From Aulosira sp. ZfuVER01 (GTDB lineage Bacteria; Cyanobacteriota; Cyanobacteriia; Cyanobacteriales; Nostocaceae): 64,000 nt of DNA. The position numbers were made by a program, and so were the translations under genes. The notes beneath the pieces were generated by a model, which searched no databases, had not been told where the DNA came from, and saw nothing but the letters and a program-made list of their open reading frames with translations. Position 1 is the stretch's first letter. Each line of letters begins with the position of its first letter. This document shows positions 45,882 through 53,207 of this stretch, piece by piece. The stretch spans positions 160,001-224,000 of the forward strand of contig JAVRCV020000049.1 of the NCBI GenBank assembly GCA_034530615.2, given 5' to 3'.

Positions 45882-46127
45882 ATGACTAATCTCTTACAAG
45901 AAGCATTTGCCGTCGTCTCACAGCTACCGGAAGCTGAACAAAATGCGATCGCTCAACTGATTTTGCAGCAAATAGCCCAGCGCGATCAATCACTGCATAA
46001 AATACCTATAGATTTTATGCAATTCGCTGGTATTGCTAGTGCTGAAGAAACAATACTTTTGCAAACTCTTGAACGTGAGATTGAAGAACAGCGATCGTTA
46101 GACTTGCAAAGACAAATCGACCTGTGA
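45882..46127 (+). CDS. Probable antitoxin
   Basis: 81 aa; 4-bp GTGA overlap with the PIN gene; LLQEAFAVVSQLPEAEQNAIA N-terminus. Confidence 0.75.
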   Translation: MTNLLQEAFAVVSQLPEAEQNAIAQLILQQIAQRDQSLHKIPIDFMQFAGIASAEETILLQTLEREIEEQRSLDLQRQIDL

Positions 46128-46540
46128 AAAAAGCTTTATTGGATACTAATATCTTGTCATACTTCCTGCGAGGTGAATTGCAAGTTGTCACAAAATTAAG
46201 TGAATACCAACAATTTCACAGCAATTTAACTTTTTCTGTTCTCACCTACTATGAGATCAAGAGTGGCTTACTCTACAAAGATGCAAGGAAACTGCTTCAA
46301 CAATTTGAAATTCTTGCCAATGGCAGTGAAATTTTACAACTCGATTTAGAAACAGCTAATATTGCAAGTATCATTTACACAGACTTACGTCAAAAAGGTT
46401 TACTAATTAGTCCGATTGACTTGCTTATTGCAGCATCAGCAATTCAACATGAGTGTGTTTTAATTACTGCAAATATTAAACATTTTCAGAATATCGTTAA
46501 CTTAGAATTTGACAATTGGGCAGCACCTCCCTTGTCATGA
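46124..46540 (+). CDS. vapC: PIN-domain (VapC-like) ribonuclease toxin
   Basis: ALLDTNILS, LTYYEIKSG, DLLIAASA, LITANIKHF. Confidence 0.9.
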   Translation: MKKALLDTNILSYFLRGELQVVTKLSEYQQFHSNLTFSVLTYYEIKSGLLYKDARKLLQQFEILANGSEILQLDLETANIASIIYTDLRQKGLLISPIDLLIAASAIQHECVLITANIKHFQNIVNLEFDNWAAPPLS

Positions 46541-46640: not shown

Positions 46641-47525
46641 CTACAGCTTCTCCAACAACTCCTGAGTTAACTGAATAAATGATTTAGAACCAGGTGATTG
46701 AGGACTCATTAAAACAGCCGGCATAAAACTATCAACAGCTTTTGCCACATTCACATCAACTGGAATTTGGTTTTTACAAATTTTATCTACACCAAAATCT
46801 TCGACAACGCGATGCATAACTTGTTTATAGTATCTGCCAGTCAGGAGATTTGCACTCGACATACTGAATACAATCCCCAGCATTTTTATATCGATTTTCG
46901 CTTCATGTTCGTGACTGTCTTTTAATTGTCCAATGCGTCTTTCCAACAATTGAATACCTACTACAGATAAAGGTTCTGGTTTAGCAGGTAAAATATAAAA
47001 ATCACTGCAAGCCAAAGCGCTACGAGTTAATAGATTATAGCCAGGCGCACAATCTAGAATGATAAAATCATACTCTTGGCGAACTGGTTTTAAGATGTTA
47101 TTAATTAACACCCTTTCAAAACGATTCCAAACTGTTTCAAAATCCTGCTCGCCTAAAGCAACCGATTGTTCGTGCAGCATTTCTGAAACAACAAATTCAT
47201 CATATAAATCGATATCTCCTGGTAATAAATTCAATCCAGGTAGATTACAAACGTTAGTGTGAACGATATCCTGAATCGTCAACTTAGCGTTTGGTTCTGG
47301 TGCGATAACTTGATCTATTAGATATCGAAATGTCTTTCTATTTTTTCGACGCTTGGCAAATTCCAAAGGCGACATCAGGCTGAGTGTGGCACTAATTTGG
47401 CTATCTAAGTCCAGAACCAGCACCCGTTTTCCATGATATTTAGCTAAACAAGTAGCTAAATTAACTGTAATGGTGGTTTTACCGACACCACCTTTCATAT
47501 TTGCAGTTGCAATTACATATCCCAT
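46641..47525 (-). CDS. ParA/Soj-family ATPase (no adjacent parB)
   Basis: Deviant Walker A NMKGGVGKTT, VLVLDLDSQ, IILDCAP. Confidence 0.92.
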   Translation of the reverse strand: MGYVIATANMKGGVGKTTITVNLATCLAKYHGKRVLVLDLDSQISATLSLMSPLEFAKRRKNRKTFRYLIDQVIAPEPNAKLTIQDIVHTNVCNLPGLNLLPGDIDLYDEFVVSEMLHEQSVALGEQDFETVWNRFERVLINNILKPVRQEYDFIILDCAPGYNLLTRSALACSDFYILPAKPEPLSVVGIQLLERRIGQLKDSHEHEAKIDIKMLGIVFSMSSANLLTGRYYKQVMHRVVEDFGVDKICKNQIPVDVNVAKAVDSFMPAVLMSPQSPGSKSFIQLTQELLEKL

Positions 47526-47709: not shown

Positions 47710-50271
47710 TTAGGTTGATGGTAGCTGAATTTTAGTAGCTAATAAACTTTGTAAGCGTTGTAGTTGTGGCCCGACTTGATAAAGTAAATCACCTTTTCCT
47801 AACAAGTAAGCTGCTGCCGTTGATGTACCGCCTAAAATAATTTTGGAATCTGCTTCACTTCTGGTGCTGAGAGCAATTCTTCCTGGTAAATTAGAGCGAA
47901 TCAGTGGAGTAACAATACCCGCTTCGGGACGTTGAGTAGCAATAATCAGATGAATGCCCGCAGCTCTTGCTTTTGCTCCCAATCTTTTAATACTTTGTTC
48001 TAATGCAGTACGAATTTCCTTTTCTGCCATAAAGTCAGCATATTCATCAAAAATGCAGACAATGCGAGGTAGAAGTTGAGCAGAACGATGATTATAAGTA
48101 CTCAAATCAGCACACCCAGCTTTCTCAAACCTTTGGTAACGAGACTCCATCTCTGCAACTAATTCATCCATCAGTTCAATAGCGCGATCGCTATCCTTGA
48201 CAATAGATGAATATGACCAAGACATTTGCTCAAACTCTGGAAACGTCACCCGTTTAGGATCGACAAGGGCGATTTTGAGGTGTTGTGGAGAATGACGATA
48301 TAGTAAGCTGAGGAGGAGCGATCGCAAAAATTCGCTCTTACCACTCCCAGTTGTACCTCCAACTAAAAAGTGACAGGTATTCGGATCGGATAAATCAGCT
48401 TCTATTAATTCTCCTTCCAAATTCACCCCAATCGCAATTTTTACAGGTGCATTTGCAGGTAAGAATAGCGGTTGAATATATGCCTCAAAGCTAGCAACCT
48501 CTCTATCTGAACGGGGTAAATCTATACTGACATACCCAGCTTGTGGAGCAATTAGAGGTGGATTTGCTAACCCTAACTGCACTTGTAAGTCATTAGACAA
48601 GCGTAAAATCGAATTTACACTTACGCCTAAATGGGGTTTCAGCTTCACCCGAATAAAAGCAGGCCCCACAGCAGCGCCTTGATAATCAACTTTAATTTTA
48701 AAAGATTGCAAGGTAGTAACTAATTTTTCACCCATGACATCGCCTAATGCTGATGTCTCCTCCTTTTTAATTGAAGGTTGCGGAGTCTCAACTTCTGTAT
48801 CCACAAAAAAAGTCTGACACTTTTTCTGCTGGGGACAAATTTCACACAGATAAGGCTGAGTTGTTCGTGGTGGTGAATTGGGATGAGGCGGTTCCCAAGT
48901 TAGCCATTCTTGCATTTGTTGCAATTTATAGGGAATCAACTGATGCACAGTATTTTCTAGCTGTTCCCAAGAATATTGATACTCTTTAAATTCTGGTAAA
49001 ACACAGTAAACTGCTGAGTCAACTGGTACTTTTTTCTTTTGCCATAACAAATAACTATACAATGAAACCTGAGCCAACTGCGCTGATGGATCAACAGGTT
49101 GATAGGTTTTAAACTCCACCACAAAAAGGCGATTTACTTCAAAATTAAAAACTAAACAATCAAATTCTCCCCTAACTAGTTGCTGTGTTCCATTAGGGAG
49201 ACTAAAGTAATGCTCAATACTGCGTTCTCCAGAGAGAAAGGTATTACTAATAACGGTTTCTGCATTGCAATAGCGCCGATTAATTACTAACAATTCTGCA
49301 AAGCGCTTAATTAATCCTTGTAATCCTTGCCAAACTTGTAAAAGTGCTTGAGCTTGACTACCATCTTTCGCAACTGCTTCCTGTAGATAGGGAAAGAATT
49401 CAAGTTGATAAAATATTTGTTGCATTTGTGAGGCAACTTCCTCTACCTTTATTTGTGCAGCCTCTGGTTTAAACAAAGTTTTAAATTGCGGTTCAATCAC
49501 AGCTAATTTCACAAATTTATCCGCTAATTTATGAAACGGATTACCGATGCCAATAGCTGTATCTGGTGGTAAAAATATTGCCTTATCGCCAAATGTATGA
49601 TTTAGGTAGAATAAGCGGGGACACTCAAAAGCAAGACGGACTTTAGTCACCGTTAAAGATGAATTATCAGATTTTTCTTTTGGCTGTTTTGAGCTATTAT
49701 TTCCCATATCAAAAATATTAATTACAGCATTGGGATATGATATTTCTAGTAACCGACGATGCACAGCCGCCAAATAAACCGTATCCATCGCCGCATATTT
49801 TAGCTGCTTGTCGCTAAGAGGACGCTTTCCCCAATCACTTCCCTGTTCTTCAATTTCTACATTCGAGAAATTGCAAAGTTCTGCTGCTAAAGTTTTCAGT
49901 TTTAAATTGGAAACTTCCAAGCGTTGACGAGTAATTTTTCTGGCTAATTGTAAAGTACAAGTAACATTCTGCGCTAGCTTACCTCCTAAATACTTTACGT
50001 CATAGCTAGCATTATGAAAAATCTTCTCAATATTGGCATTACTCATGATTTGGTTAACAAAATATGCTGCCAAATCACGTTTATTTAAGACATCGAGAAT
50101 GTAAGCACATACACCTGTTGAGTCTGTCGGATCAGCTAATACCTGAATCAGCGATAATTTTGGATAGTAAGTATTCCAGTCAGCAGTTTCTGTATCTAAC
50201 CAAAGAATTTTAGTAGATGCTAATTTAGATATTAATTCCCGGATTTCCGGAGCTTCTGTCAGGTATTGCAT
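47710..50271 (-). CDS. Fusion of DEDDy 3'-5' exonuclease, 4-Cys PD-(D/E)XK (RecB/Cas4-like) nuclease and FtsK/SpoIIIE motor ATPase
   Basis: ExoI WLDTET, ExoII FHNASYD, ExoIII YAAMD; CPR...GEFDCL...VVEFKT...QVSLY...CEICPQQKKC; HFLVGGTTGSGKS, IFDEYAD, KARAAGIHLIIATQRP, LLGKGD. Confidence 0.9.
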   Translation of the reverse strand: MQYLTEAPEIRELISKLASTKILWLDTETADWNTYYPKLSLIQVLADPTDSTGVCAYILDVLNKRDLAAYFVNQIMSNANIEKIFHNASYDVKYLGGKLAQNVTCTLQLARKITRQRLEVSNLKLKTLAAELCNFSNVEIEEQGSDWGKRPLSDKQLKYAAMDTVYLAAVHRRLLEISYPNAVINIFDMGNNSSKQPKEKSDNSSLTVTKVRLAFECPRLFYLNHTFGDKAIFLPPDTAIGIGNPFHKLADKFVKLAVIEPQFKTLFKPEAAQIKVEEVASQMQQIFYQLEFFPYLQEAVAKDGSQAQALLQVWQGLQGLIKRFAELLVINRRYCNAETVISNTFLSGERSIEHYFSLPNGTQQLVRGEFDCLVFNFEVNRLFVVEFKTYQPVDPSAQLAQVSLYSYLLWQKKKVPVDSAVYCVLPEFKEYQYSWEQLENTVHQLIPYKLQQMQEWLTWEPPHPNSPPRTTQPYLCEICPQQKKCQTFFVDTEVETPQPSIKKEETSALGDVMGEKLVTTLQSFKIKVDYQGAAVGPAFIRVKLKPHLGVSVNSILRLSNDLQVQLGLANPPLIAPQAGYVSIDLPRSDREVASFEAYIQPLFLPANAPVKIAIGVNLEGELIEADLSDPNTCHFLVGGTTGSGKSEFLRSLLLSLLYRHSPQHLKIALVDPKRVTFPEFEQMSWSYSSIVKDSDRAIELMDELVAEMESRYQRFEKAGCADLSTYNHRSAQLLPRIVCIFDEYADFMAEKEIRTALEQSIKRLGAKARAAGIHLIIATQRPEAGIVTPLIRSNLPGRIALSTRSEADSKIILGGTSTAAAYLLGKGDLLYQVGPQLQRLQSLLATKIQLPST

Positions 50272-50301
50272 TGACTAATTATTAACACTTATAGCAAGAA
50301 A

Positions 50302-52338
50302 TTATTTTTTAGGTACTAAGCAAATTAACTGAGCTTCCAGCCTAGCTTTAGGGTCAAGTAATTTAATTTGATTTTTTTGACATAATTCTTGAATAGATGC
50401 TTCTATTTGAGCTTCAATTGCAGTAGGAAAGTGACTGAGGGTATTTTGAATCAAAGTTTGTCTACTTAATAAATACTGAGTAGTGACTAAATTTAATATA
50501 AAGTCATTTATTGGTAATTTTGGTGGAGGTTTGATTGTTCCTTTAACTATGCCTAAATCTTTTAATAAAGGACAGTCTTCTAAAACTTTAGATTCACGAA
50601 TAAGAGCTTGCAAATTCTTTAGGTTGATTGTTTGACTACCAATAACTAAATCATTTTCACGAGCATCTCTAACTAAACTTTGGTAAGTCTCTAGGAAATG
50701 AACAGAGATAAGATTTGGCTTGATGTGTTTATGAGGTGATTCTGTAAAAATCTCTACAAATACTTTATGTCCTTTATTTTTAGAATCACCCAATCCTTCT
50801 GCGCGAATCAGATATAGAGTTAAAGAAGGATCTTTTTTAATAGCTTTTTTGCAAGCTTCCATGATGTAGAAGAAGTTGGTCATATTAGCATCTTCTGTCC
50901 AAACTACTCCGAAGTTTCCAGGGTTATTAGGCAATTGATAGCCTATTGAATAACTAGCATACTTAGTTCCAGTAAAGAGTGGAGTTTTAATTCCTTCTAT
51001 TTGCAACCCTGCTAAAGATTCTTTTATAATCTGAATCAAGTCTGGTGAAGATAAATGGCGAAATTTTGTAATTCGCTGTTGAACTTTAGTAAATTCTTCC
51101 TGCCATTTTAATTTAAATGATGCTAGTAATTTTAGTTTTTTATTTTTGTCCTCTACTTCATCATTTTTAGGATATGTAAAATCTGCTGGATTTTTGCCAT
51201 TTACTAACCATTCTTTATAGTATTGAAATATATCTCTACCAAGAATTATAATATTTCTGGGATCAGTCTTTCCTGAAGGAAATTCTTCTTCTAAATATTG
51301 GCGATTTAAAGGATAAAGGGCAGAATTGGGTTTAGGATTTACCTGACGATGAAGCAAATAAAGACGAGATGCTAGTAGTAGTTCTGCTTGTTGTAAATTG
51401 ATAGGTCTGAGAGGAACTTGTCGTTCTATTCTAGCTTTATCAGTCTGATCAATCTGCCTTGCTTGCTTATTCCAAATATCTGTATTAATGCTGATAATAA
51501 TTAGAAAATTGTTATCTTCATCATGTATTTTTGTGTTAACGTCAAACAAGTTTTGCAAGGCAAGTGAACCATCTGGGAGACGCGCAATATTGTTTAACTG
51601 ATCAAAGCAAAGTACAATTGGCTGGGTATCAGCTGCAATTCTACTAAAGTTCGCTAAAGTTTCTCTTGCAGCTTCTTCTGTATCAATAGACCTCTTAACT
51701 TTTAGCTCTTGCAAAGACTCTTCAGCTAAATCATCTCCACGTAACCACTCGCAAGCTACAGGATACAGTTCTAAATCCGTCAGATCATGTAAAACTCCGA
51801 AAAAGCTGTCTGCATTATAGATACCTACTTGTTTGTATATATCTTTTAGTTTGTGAATAAATCTGCGGCGATCACTTCGCAATAAATCAAATATATCATC
51901 CTTAAAAATGCGTTCTTTAACGCTGCGTTGTTTAATAGCAAATAGAACATTTTCCAGCCAAAGTAACAGTTGAGAATCTTTTTGTCCCTCTGGAACTTGT
52001 ACTAAACTATCAACTGTGTAGCGTAAAATGTGCCTCCAGATGCTATCAGTCTGAGGAAATGGAGGAATATAAACAAAAAATGCTTTATGGTTTAATTTGT
52101 TCTTAAGTCTACCCAAAAGATAGGTCTTGCCAGAACCACCATCACCGTCCAATATCAGAGTACGTGTGCGATGATCTTGAGCAACTTGGTCGAGTATTAC
52201 TTCAATTGTAGTGATCGCTTCTTGATGGATAGAATCAACTATAGGTTCTGGCTGTTGCTGTTTGTGCCAAAAGTTGACAGAGCGAAAGTTATCGAAGGGG
52301 TTGATACTCCTCAGAATAATTTCATCTATAGATACCAT
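50302..52338 (-). CDS. P-loop (AAA+-like) ATPase with extended C-terminal domains; possibly RcaG-like
   Basis: Walker A GDGGSGKT, Walker B-like IVLCFDQL; 11 bp after the upstream gene and 30 bp before the downstream gene. Confidence 0.85.
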   Translation of the reverse strand: MVSIDEIILRSINPFDNFRSVNFWHKQQQPEPIVDSIHQEAITTIEVILDQVAQDHRTRTLILDGDGGSGKTYLLGRLKNKLNHKAFFVYIPPFPQTDSIWRHILRYTVDSLVQVPEGQKDSQLLLWLENVLFAIKQRSVKERIFKDDIFDLLRSDRRRFIHKLKDIYKQVGIYNADSFFGVLHDLTDLELYPVACEWLRGDDLAEESLQELKVKRSIDTEEAARETLANFSRIAADTQPIVLCFDQLNNIARLPDGSLALQNLFDVNTKIHDEDNNFLIIISINTDIWNKQARQIDQTDKARIERQVPLRPINLQQAELLLASRLYLLHRQVNPKPNSALYPLNRQYLEEEFPSGKTDPRNIIILGRDIFQYYKEWLVNGKNPADFTYPKNDEVEDKNKKLKLLASFKLKWQEEFTKVQQRITKFRHLSSPDLIQIIKESLAGLQIEGIKTPLFTGTKYASYSIGYQLPNNPGNFGVVWTEDANMTNFFYIMEACKKAIKKDPSLTLYLIRAEGLGDSKNKGHKVFVEIFTESPHKHIKPNLISVHFLETYQSLVRDARENDLVIGSQTINLKNLQALIRESKVLEDCPLLKDLGIVKGTIKPPPKLPINDFILNLVTTQYLLSRQTLIQNTLSHFPTAIEAQIEASIQELCQKNQIKLLDPKARLEAQLICLVPKK

Positions 52339-52349
52339 AAAGTTACTCT

Positions 52350-53207
52350 TTAGTTCACGGTAAGTTTAATGAAAAACAGCGGACTTCCTGAACGCTGGTT
52401 AATTCCAGCGTTGACTTGCTCTTGAGTGTATTCTTGAGCGTGTACAAGCGCTCTCAATTCAATTTGGTCATTCTTTTGCAAACGATACAGTACTTGATCT
52501 AATTCATCCCTTGAAAGCGGTGGTTGTAACTTTTGTCGCAGATGGAAAATAGGTAAATAATTATCTGTACCCAATTCCTTATCTAATTTTTCAATAATTT
52601 GTAAAATTTCTTCATCACTGAGATTACTAATTATTTCAGAAGCTGACTCTGTAGCAATTGTTAGTGAAGTAGAAACTTGTTCTGACTTTACTCGCAAGTT
52701 CTTGCGTAAAAACCGCAGGTAATTACCCAGCAATTCCAAACTAATGACGGGGTTAGAGCCTTTGTTAGGACTGTAATCATCCCGCAAATACTCAATTCCT
52801 CTTTCAGTTAACCAAACTTCGGCTTTAGTTCTTTGAATTTTGATTTCAGCTTCAATCAACCCCCGTTCCTTCAGGGTGTTCAATATCGCATCTCGTTCAG
52901 CAGCTTTTGGCGAGGTGATTTTGCTGGGGGCGATTTTCCCAGAAGCTTTACTTATCTTGTCCAGTACTTTGAGTTCTTTGTCTGTGATCGGTACTTGGGC
53001 TGCATCAAGCTTCAGCAGAGCTTGACCCGGCGGTAAAATTTTAACTGTGGCAATCTCACGGGTATAGTCTACCAGTTCGCGATCGCCCAAATCTCGACAA
53101 ATTTTGTCTTTACCTTTAAACGAGCTAAAAGCACTTGCAGTAAGGCTAGAGCGATAATTGGGACATCCCAACAACTTGAGTAGAAACTTTAACTCGTTCG
53201 TTTCCAT
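52350..53207 (-). CDS. rcaD: Multi-winged-helix DNA-binding protein, resembling proteins annotated RcaD
   Basis: wH-like segments (LGDRELVDY, LKERGLIEA...WLTERG, SRDELDQVLYRLQKNDQIEL). The name is from recall of the family N-terminus (ELKFLLKLLG) and is not verified. Confidence 0.55.
   Translation of the reverse strand: METNELKFLLKLLGCPNYRSSLTASAFSSFKGKDKICRDLGDRELVDYTREIATVKILPPGQALLKLDAAQVPITDKELKVLDKISKASGKIAPSKITSPKAAERDAILNTLKERGLIEAEIKIQRTKAEVWLTERGIEYLRDDYSPNKGSNPVISLELLGNYLRFLRKNLRVKSEQVSTSLTIATESASEIISNLSDEEILQIIEKLDKELGTDNYLPIFHLRQKLQPPLSRDELDQVLYRLQKNDQIELRALVHAQEYTQEQVNAGINQRSGSPLFFIKLTVN

Follow-up and report, generated by a model that had tools for sequence, protein, structure and literature searches.

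Orc/CDC6-coupled "HerA/FtsK capture" systems have been predicted to act against invading DNA (Rakesh, Aravind and Krishnan, Nucleic Acids Res 2024; PMC10853773), a proposal restated in passages of a 2026 follow-up (PMC12839542). As set out in main-text sections of the first paper, their mobile neighbourhoods encode an Orc/CDC6 ATPase, an inactive restriction endonuclease (REase), a winged helix-turn-helix (wHTH) domain, an active REase and a HerA/FtsK motor with an FtsK alpha domain, together with a further multi-wHTH gene, a 3'-5' exonuclease that is sometimes fused, and a sister operon carrying an ASCH-REase. The DNA considered here, 64,000 nucleotides of Aulosira sp. ZfuVER01 (assembly GCA_034530615.2, contig JAVRCV020000049.1, positions 160,001-224,000; this whole stretch is called the window), holds an operon, rcaD-rcaG-fusion, whose third gene encodes an exonuclease, a nuclease and an FtsK motor in one chain. 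By its sequence this fusion belongs to the same class, which is known so far by prediction, and on balance it probably serves as the effector, motor and nuclease in one, of a three-component machine for the destruction of invading DNA; it is neither a stand-alone enzyme nor the FtsK of cell division. New here are the exchange of a block made up of rcaG and the RcaD tail, the change in DNA-binding loop I of the motor, and the tie of the predicted class to RcaD/RcaG.

Comparison with described systems

The locus resembles the Orc/CDC6 capture systems in its Orc/CDC6 ATPase with a predicted C-terminal wHTH, its active REase (predicted from the residues), its FtsK part with an alpha domain, its separate gene for a putative multi-wHTH protein and its 3'-5' exonuclease, an optional domain joined to the FtsK part, and the genome also holds a sister operon of wHTH, Orc/CDC6 and ASCH-REase genes. 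The terms RcaD, Cas4, RecB and cyanobacteria have no occurrences in the main text of PMC10853773, and allele exchange, the iron-sulphur (Fe-S) staple and the loop-I change are absent from its main-text sections compared here; its supplement may list the present loci. No experimental test of the architecture was found in the literature searched, subscription papers lying outside it, nor any paper tying RcaD/RcaG to an FtsK fusion, the PMC10853773 supplement lying outside that search as well.

The upstream pair is like rcaD-rcaG of Calothrix/Fremyella PCC 7601, in which a 285-amino-acid (aa) DNA-binding protein is followed by rcaG, described as a putative ATPase gene downstream of rcaD (PMC2799420, in passages summarising Noubir et al. 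2002). In those passages RcaD is described as binding the cpc2 promoter with the help of RcaG, an RcaD homologue as binding unrelated DNAs non-specifically, and the pair as regulators of chromatic acclimation; unlike the present locus, no downstream nuclease-FtsK gene is mentioned in them.

Like DndFGH/SspFGH, the locus joins a putative multi-wHTH protein (there DndG), a REase and a captured HerA/FtsK motor. Unlike them, it has no DndF kinase, an Orc/Cdc6 ATPase and a Cas4/AdnA-type nuclease, and DndH is far larger. The SspH profile matches only the FtsK part of the fusion (aa 503-832), mad8 likewise matches the FtsK part only, and SspF the P-loop only. Chromosomal FtsK/SpoIIIE shares the alpha/beta motor, Walker motifs, arginine finger and loop II, whereas the fusion has no membrane anchor, no gamma domain, a replaced loop-I K657, attached nucleases and a patchy distribution. 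A PD-(D/E)XK nuclease with 1+3 cysteines is shared with AdnAB/AddAB, Dna2, Exo5 and Cas4, and a motor feeding a nuclease, as proposed here, with AdnAB/AddAB and NurA-HerA; in the latter two the motor is an SF1 helicase or a separate HerA, whereas here it is an FtsK-type ring within the nuclease chain, and a dedicated AAA+ partner is encoded upstream. Part of a review lists other proteins, of the predicted YjgR/HerA family, as cyanobacterial FtsK (PMC7766704).

Anatomy and conservation of the fusion protein

47710..50271, minus strand: fusion gene, exonuclease-nuclease-FtsK, 853 aa (open reading frame (ORF) list, Pfam, homologue alignment, model)
49747..50265, minus strand: DEDDy 3'-5' exonuclease domain, aa 3-175, an optional module (Pfam, PDB sequence matches)
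48814..49656, minus strand: PD-(D/E)XK nuclease, aa 206-486 (Pfam, alignment, fold like AdnA/Exo5/Cas4)
48814..49656, minus strand: nuclease residues D371, E386-x-K388 and Q401-x3-Y405, and cysteines C217, C476, C479 and C485
48514..48762, minus strand: FtsK alpha domain, aa 504-586 (Pfam)
47737..48453, minus strand: FtsK beta, RecA-like ATPase domain, with no gamma domain after it (Pfam, alignment)

Pfam places DNA_pol_A_exo1 at aa 3-175 (E 7.5e-31), PDDEXK_1 at aa 206-486 (E 1.8e-11), FtsK_alpha at aa 504-586 (E 2.6e-10) and FtsK_SpoIIIE at aa 607-782 (E 7.2e-39). No gamma or membrane family was among the Pfam matches of the protein, and a transmembrane segment is not expected because the highest 19-residue hydropathy is only 1.07. 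A search of the whole genome for FtsK_gamma gave no match, whereas 8 of 14 controls gave one. The AlphaFold model (predicted local distance difference test (pLDDT) 80, predicted template modelling score 0.41) has three domains joined by flexible linkers. Its motor matches E. coli FtsK (Z 31.5, root-mean-square deviation (rmsd) 2.2, 313 aligned) and the C-terminal domain of DndH (Z 15.8), its exonuclease matches RNase D (Z 18.9) and also PolI-type exonucleases, and its nuclease matches AdnA (Z 14.7), human Exo5 (Z 14.6) and Cas4 (Z 13.5). The best sequence matches of the exonuclease domain among solved nucleases in the PDB were NrnC/diDNase, RNase D-like enzymes and Rrp6. As regards a Cas4 of CRISPR adaptation, TIGR00372 reached 21 bits against a cut-off of 65, and no cas1/cas2-like ORF was found, as judged by eye, among the recurring neighbour clusters listed for the loci. 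A stand-alone exonuclease paralogue of 306 aa, 52% identical over aa 1-177 and with a different C-terminal part, is encoded elsewhere in the genome (contig C36, 135018-135938).

A scan of GTDB genomes returned 318 related stretches, which excludes an assembly artefact as the origin of the fusion. Locus counts use the best 80 of the 318; among these, titles that name an organism are cyanobacterial, and frameshift-like splits occur in three loci (L010, L038 and L070). The window protein was aligned with 72 full-length homologues from these loci (n = 73). Exonuclease residues D26, E28, D91, Y159 and D163 are kept in 73/73, as are nuclease residues D371, K388, Q401 and Y405, an acidic residue at the E386 position, and cysteines C476, C479 and C485, with C217 kept in 72. 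In the motor, Walker A (G644-K645-S646), Walker B (D742-E743) and the arginine finger R769 are likewise invariant, and all 73 proteins stop 5-20 residues past position 845. The first-pass annotation of this DNA had proposed two nuclease folds on an FtsK alpha/beta motor, with the full DEDDy set and a RecB-family pattern bracketed by 1+3 cysteines, in a soluble protein that ends after the motor without anchor or gamma domain; this anatomy is borne out, the cysteine pattern being of the Cas4/AddB type in 72-73 of 73.

Two features of this anatomy do not extend to the whole family. In relatives of high G+C content (high-GC relatives) the catalytic D, D, K, Q and Y are kept while all four cysteines are absent (23/23 aligned). 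The annotation had also suggested that the protein could degrade both strands, or DNA and RNA, but a pair of nucleases for two strands is not the core design: among 20 diverse cyanobacterial loci the exonuclease is absent from four, sits behind the nuclease in one and is followed by a protein kinase in another. The exonuclease and the Fe-S-type cysteines are thus optional parts of the family, and the core consists of ATPase, nuclease and FtsK. At L113 (8925-16873) and L195 (10091-16325) the nuclease inside the fusion is degenerate, with an intact copy encoded separately close by; the L113 fusion also has a Ser/Thr kinase domain.

Partner genes and distribution of the operon

50302..52338, minus strand: rcaG-like gene, 678 aa, Orc1/Cdc6-clade AAA+ ATPase with a middle alpha/beta domain and a C-terminal winged-helix-like domain
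52350..53207, minus strand: rcaD-like gene, 285 aa, predicted multi-winged-helix DNA-binding protein (named homologues, winged-helix matches)

The three genes lie on the same strand, with gaps of 11 bases between rcaD and rcaG and 30 bases between rcaG and the fusion. An rcaG-family ORF is present in 77 of the 80 loci, the three misses being cut by contig ends, and an rcaD-family ORF in 75. The pair lies directly upstream of the fusion in 18 of 20 fetched regions, and a strong rcaG match (E <1e-80, a threshold of our own setting) was found in 32/32 nuclease-positive genomes. The nuclease domain itself occurs in 32 of 251 genomes of the phylum and 16 of 33 of the family, and is patchy within genera (6/8 and 1/5 genomes of two genera). 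This linkage makes it doubtful that the motor is sequence-undirected, as had been supposed from the fusion gene; as the third gene of the operon, it is probably targeted in trans by RcaD/RcaG.

Beyond the cyanobacteria, profile searching recovered from Carboxydochorda subterranea, a distant Limnochordia bacterium, a protein of 1348 aa that combines ATPase, four-cysteine nuclease and FtsK in one chain. On high-GC metagenome contigs, presumed to be non-cyanobacterial, the ATPase gene overlaps a gene of ~610 aa for nuclease-FtsK, often behind an ORF of ~255 aa that matches RcaD weakly (probability 5%, E 0.007). A phage origin was considered and rejected, as viral contigs gave no RcaG relative and one distant FtsK-only match. 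A promoter/terminator scan was at chance level (18 vs 19.6).

Five of five RcaD homologues whose names were checked, at 71-81% identity, carry the name "transcription factor RcaD" in a source, and Atlas clusters agree, while the rcaG label rests on position directly 3' of rcaD plus a P-loop. The RcaG model (pLDDT 88.8) matches Cdc6 best (Z 15.4, rmsd 3.5, 254 aligned), and also Orc/Orc1, TnsC, BrxC and MuB, as well as the sensors Avs3/Avs4 (Z 11.7 and 10.7) of the signal transduction ATPases with numerous domains (STAND). Walker A is intact in 76/76. Walker B reads D-Q/N for D-E, which might be taken for a dead site; this was set aside because an acid follows two residues on in 75/76, the exception being the window's own copy. 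Predicted secondary structure runs in REase-like helix/strand order at aa 430-560, a region that gives no Pfam match, and in winged-helix order at aa 609-674; alignment by hhalign to the ASCH-REase and ATPase-2 alignments did not recover an inactive REase in RcaG (probability ≤2%).

In RcaD, winged-helix matches fall in two regions, with HTH_45 in 15 of 44 members. For its C-terminal domain (52353-52650), the RcaD profile gives the 34L protein as the best PDB sequence match (1sfu, E 4e-4) and ZBP1 as a weaker one; Pfam z-alpha is found in 2/44 members. As a tentative lead, the Z-alpha tyrosine is seemingly kept, with aspartate in place of the asparagine.

Exchange of rcaG between relatives

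50277..52458, minus strand: exchanged block, the last ~36 rcaD codons and the whole of rcaG, both flanks being ~90% identical in close relatives

Pairs drawn from 66 complete cassettes were compared; they share members and so are not independent. Among the 41 pairs with fusion identity of at least 90%, RcaG is <60% identical in 12. When closeness was taken from nuclease and motor identity, 48 close pairs divided into 18 swapped, 27 unswapped and 3 between. In the swapped pairs RcaD residues 196-247 have a median identity of 0.91, residues 248-283 of 0.44 and the AAA+ domain of 0.54, with nuclease and motor at 0.92-0.94, whereas the RcaD tail of unswapped pairs has a median of 0.97. DNA identity of the window to its two nearest relatives is 51-75% inside ~52400-50300 and mostly 83-98% outside. 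In a related strain, contigs from two RNA libraries of one study show the breaks in identity at 52459 and 50276; one 6.7-kb contig spans rcaD to parA in each of the two libraries, although contigs cannot prove a single transcript, and RNA run X3 gave no contig.

In a quick tree, the window's RcaG clusters with copies from Scytonema, Aulosira, Dolichospermum, Anabaena, Nostoc and Coleofasciculaceae, and not with the nearest relatives of its fusion. Approximately unbiased (AU) tests, made on quick trees of 15 rows chosen by us with groups named after the trees were seen, rejected three fusion-tree clades for RcaG (p-AU 6e-6, 4e-49 and 1e-54) and the RcaG clade for the fusion. The G+C content of rcaG is below that of the fusion gene in 64/65 loci, and two or three divergent rcaG copies stand in tandem at L014, L026, L028 and L032. 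Specificity genes of conflict systems, such as hsdS alleles, are swapped in like manner, and the exchange of rcaG may be likened to their behaviour. The tail of RcaD could be an interface that co-evolves, or could simply follow the recombination point.

DNA-gripping loops of the motor

47842..47856, minus strand: equivalent of DNA-binding loop I, aa 806-810 (alignment to FtsK)

In Pseudomonas aeruginosa FtsK, according to PMC7321959, loop I holds on to one strand only, with K657 and R661, while the second strand is gripped by R632 and K643 of loop II. A gap-free alignment, with the numbering offset derived from the R620 motif, places these at E806, K810, R781 and R792 of the fusion. Loop II is kept, with R781 in 66/66 and R792 in 65/66 family members. 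Position 806, by contrast, is never basic in the 66 (61 E, 4 Q, 1 I), while 810 is K or R in 32; the 23 high-GC relatives carry A, T or S at 806, and one of them has a basic residue at 810. The loop-I lysine position is thus basic in 0/89 family members, and the Carboxydochorda fusion protein has R there. Both loop-I residues are present in E. coli FtsK and absent in TcpA and EccC, so their loss is common to other non-chromosomal FtsK-like ATPases.

From this alignment the motor appears to have lost one of its two DNA-gripping loops while retaining loop II, and the ring may track along a single DNA strand. A nearby position, 802, is R or K in 53/66 and might compensate for the change. The loop-I region of the fusion model is poor (pLDDT <50). 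The earlier expectation of a translocating FtsK-type motor stands as regards the motor type, whereas ordinary pumping of double-stranded DNA is not a given because the loop-I lysine is missing.

Proposed mechanism and alternative explanations

From the observed anatomy, conservation, linkage, natural fusion, patchiness and exchange, we infer the following biochemical steps and target. RcaD would bind DNA via several winged helices, and RcaG, as an Orc1/Cdc6/TnsC/BrxC-like AAA+ protein, would assemble where RcaD has bound DNA, or on a structure specific to invaders, and would thereby set specificity, a role suggested by the exchange of the rcaG block and by a fold that is itself predicted. RcaG would then recruit or load the FtsK ring, in place of the missing membrane anchor and of the gamma domain that reads FtsK orienting polar sequences, as the operon, the co-occurrence and the natural fusion suggest. 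The ring would travel along DNA, probably with a grip on a single strand, and feed it to the Fe-S-type PD-(D/E)XK nuclease, with the optional DEDDy domain trimming the products; these last steps are proposed because the catalytic residues are conserved. The phosphorothioate genes elsewhere in the host genome are one candidate self mark. A fuller version, put forward tentatively and considered unlikely as a whole, takes RcaD-RcaG as the targeting arm of a DNA-destroying machine, RcaG and the RcaD tail as a swappable specificity cassette, comparable to HsdS in type I restriction, that loads an FtsK ring turned from a two-strand pump into a motor tracking one strand, as ORC-Cdc6 loads a helicase, and the orphan phosphorothioate genes of every family genome searched as a possible self mark.

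Several observations weigh against an anti-invader effector. Published work, in the parts of PMC2799420 consulted, treats RcaD/RcaG as regulators of phycobiliprotein operons, and rcaG without the nuclease in seven further genomes (7/39 rcaG-positive) may mean that the pair has another role. In 2/20 regions rcaD-rcaG lies elsewhere in the genome with the fusion intact (fusions at L125 of G071 and L128 of G145, with rcaD-rcaG at L142 and L143 of the same genomes). The long stay of the cassette at a single chromosomal slot is compatible with a host function as well. The flanks, judged by eye on the basis of ORF starts, are mostly housekeeping genes, and none of the loci inspected sits in a defence island; in the 14 high-GC loci inspected, McrBC was confirmed beside one and Cas6 beside one. 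No methylase belonging to the cassette was found, the one C5-methylase ORF lying near L123 only, and none of the PADLOC models takes in RcaD, RcaG or the nuclease as a system.

A host function could take the form of an accessory resection or clean-up machine, like NurA-HerA or AdnAB and loaded by RcaG, that acts on broken ends, stalled forks or surplus chromosome copies or in DNA recycling. The nuclease fold is nearest to the resection enzymes AdnA and Exo5, the gene is the sole one of the FtsK family in its genome (PF01580 passes its cut-off there for the fusion alone), its position beside parA and ileS is stable, and the rcaD-parA contigs of the related strain hint at steady expression. This explanation is nevertheless rather unlikely, as the cassette is missing from 17 of 33 near-complete family genomes and a repair loader has no obvious reason for exchange between genera or for divergent tandem copies. 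An abortive or addiction module, in which RcaG responds to a phage protein or to RcaD being lost and turns the nuclease against the host chromosome, would account for a cassette that holds no self-marking enzyme, for the relation of the RcaG fold to Avs3/Avs4, and for an RcaD tail that travels with rcaG as paired interfaces do; it is improbable given that rcaD and rcaG were lost or moved in two of 20 loci with the fusion intact, and that the best folds of RcaG are DNA-loading ATPases and not STAND receptors.

That RcaD/RcaG are true regulators of light-harvesting genes, with the fusion a co-transcribed passenger or a chromatin remodeller, draws on the cpc2 promoter binding described in PMC2799420 and on the nuclease-free pairs. 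It is given little credence here, since the same account, as consulted, has an RcaD homologue bind DNA non-specifically, the ATPase-nuclease-FtsK arrangement recurs in a Limnochordia bacterium and on the metagenome contigs of high G+C content, and ATPase, nuclease and motor are naturally fused in one protein. Source records name the protein "DNA translocase FtsK" or "cell division FtsK/SpoIIIE", and an alpha domain and an adjoining parA would suit an FtsK that segregates chromosomes at the septum. This is very improbable for a protein that has neither anchor nor gamma domain and an altered loop I; moreover, PF01580 was found in 38/251 genomes of the phylum, in 32 of them via the fusion (11 candidates scored per genome), and parA is present without the fusion in 5/5 genomes.

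If the fusion is indeed an anti-invader effector, the predicted class gains a genetically tractable host, two long-named cyanobacterial regulators are reassigned, the label "DNA translocase FtsK" in many cyanobacterial genomes should no longer be read as pointing to cell division, and filamentous cyanobacteria may possess an unrecognised barrier to DNA transfer. The natural rcaG alleles offer ready material for a specificity swap, and the loop-I change raises the possibility of single-strand tracking by an FtsK ring. The architecture is already in print; what opens the class to direct testing is the rcaG exchange, together with the loop-I change and the link to RcaD/RcaG.

Chromosomal slot and related operons

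46641..47525, minus strand: parA-family gene downstream of the fusion, a fixed chromosomal landmark (slot comparison)

The parA gene is probably not part of the system, and was rejected as a member because it is kept in all five genomes without the cassette. Where the cassette is missing, the slot beside parA is taken up by a REase-ParA/ParB-like pair, by insertion sequences together with a decayed ftsK fragment, or by unrelated genes. A fusion of an HsdR_N-like REase to ParA with a ParB-like partner was seen at L132-L134, L234, L236 and L237, often in the slot beside parA. In the window, a small antitoxin-like ORF and a PIN-domain ORF (a VapBC-like pair, 45882-46540) lie between ileS and parA. 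Near the high-GC cassettes, McrBC stands with a HIT-PLD-helicase gene at L157 (8319-15401), and the Cas6 gene is at L207 (18297-19235).

The phosphorothioate genes lie on contig C13 of the same genome (L238, 1726-9322), as a DGQHR-dndC-dndD-dndE-methyltransferase locus. DndE was found with very high scores, like a core gene, in 33/33 family genomes with or without the cassette, so that co-occurrence is uninformative on a link to phosphorothioation; one fusion-positive genome (G038) has no DndE. Searches for dptG/dptH were empty, but were run without a positive control.

Both ATPase families paralogous to RcaG are linked to nucleases, a point in favour of the anti-invader reading, one as wHTH, ATPase and DUF1802-REase and the other as a DEDDh-ATPase fusion. 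The first is the sister operon, on contig C43 of the same genome (L131, 5822-9918), which encodes a wHTH protein of 226 aa that matches RcaD by profile (probability 96%), an ATPase of 632 aa and a 489-aa protein with DUF1802 and an Mrr-like REase. This REase is a candidate modification-dependent nuclease, and is present in 46/251 genomes. The other, a third RcaG-related family of ~800 aa, carries an N-terminal DEDDh exonuclease fused to the ATPase (L145, 5960-8506; L146, 8210-10618; L147, 7874-10207).

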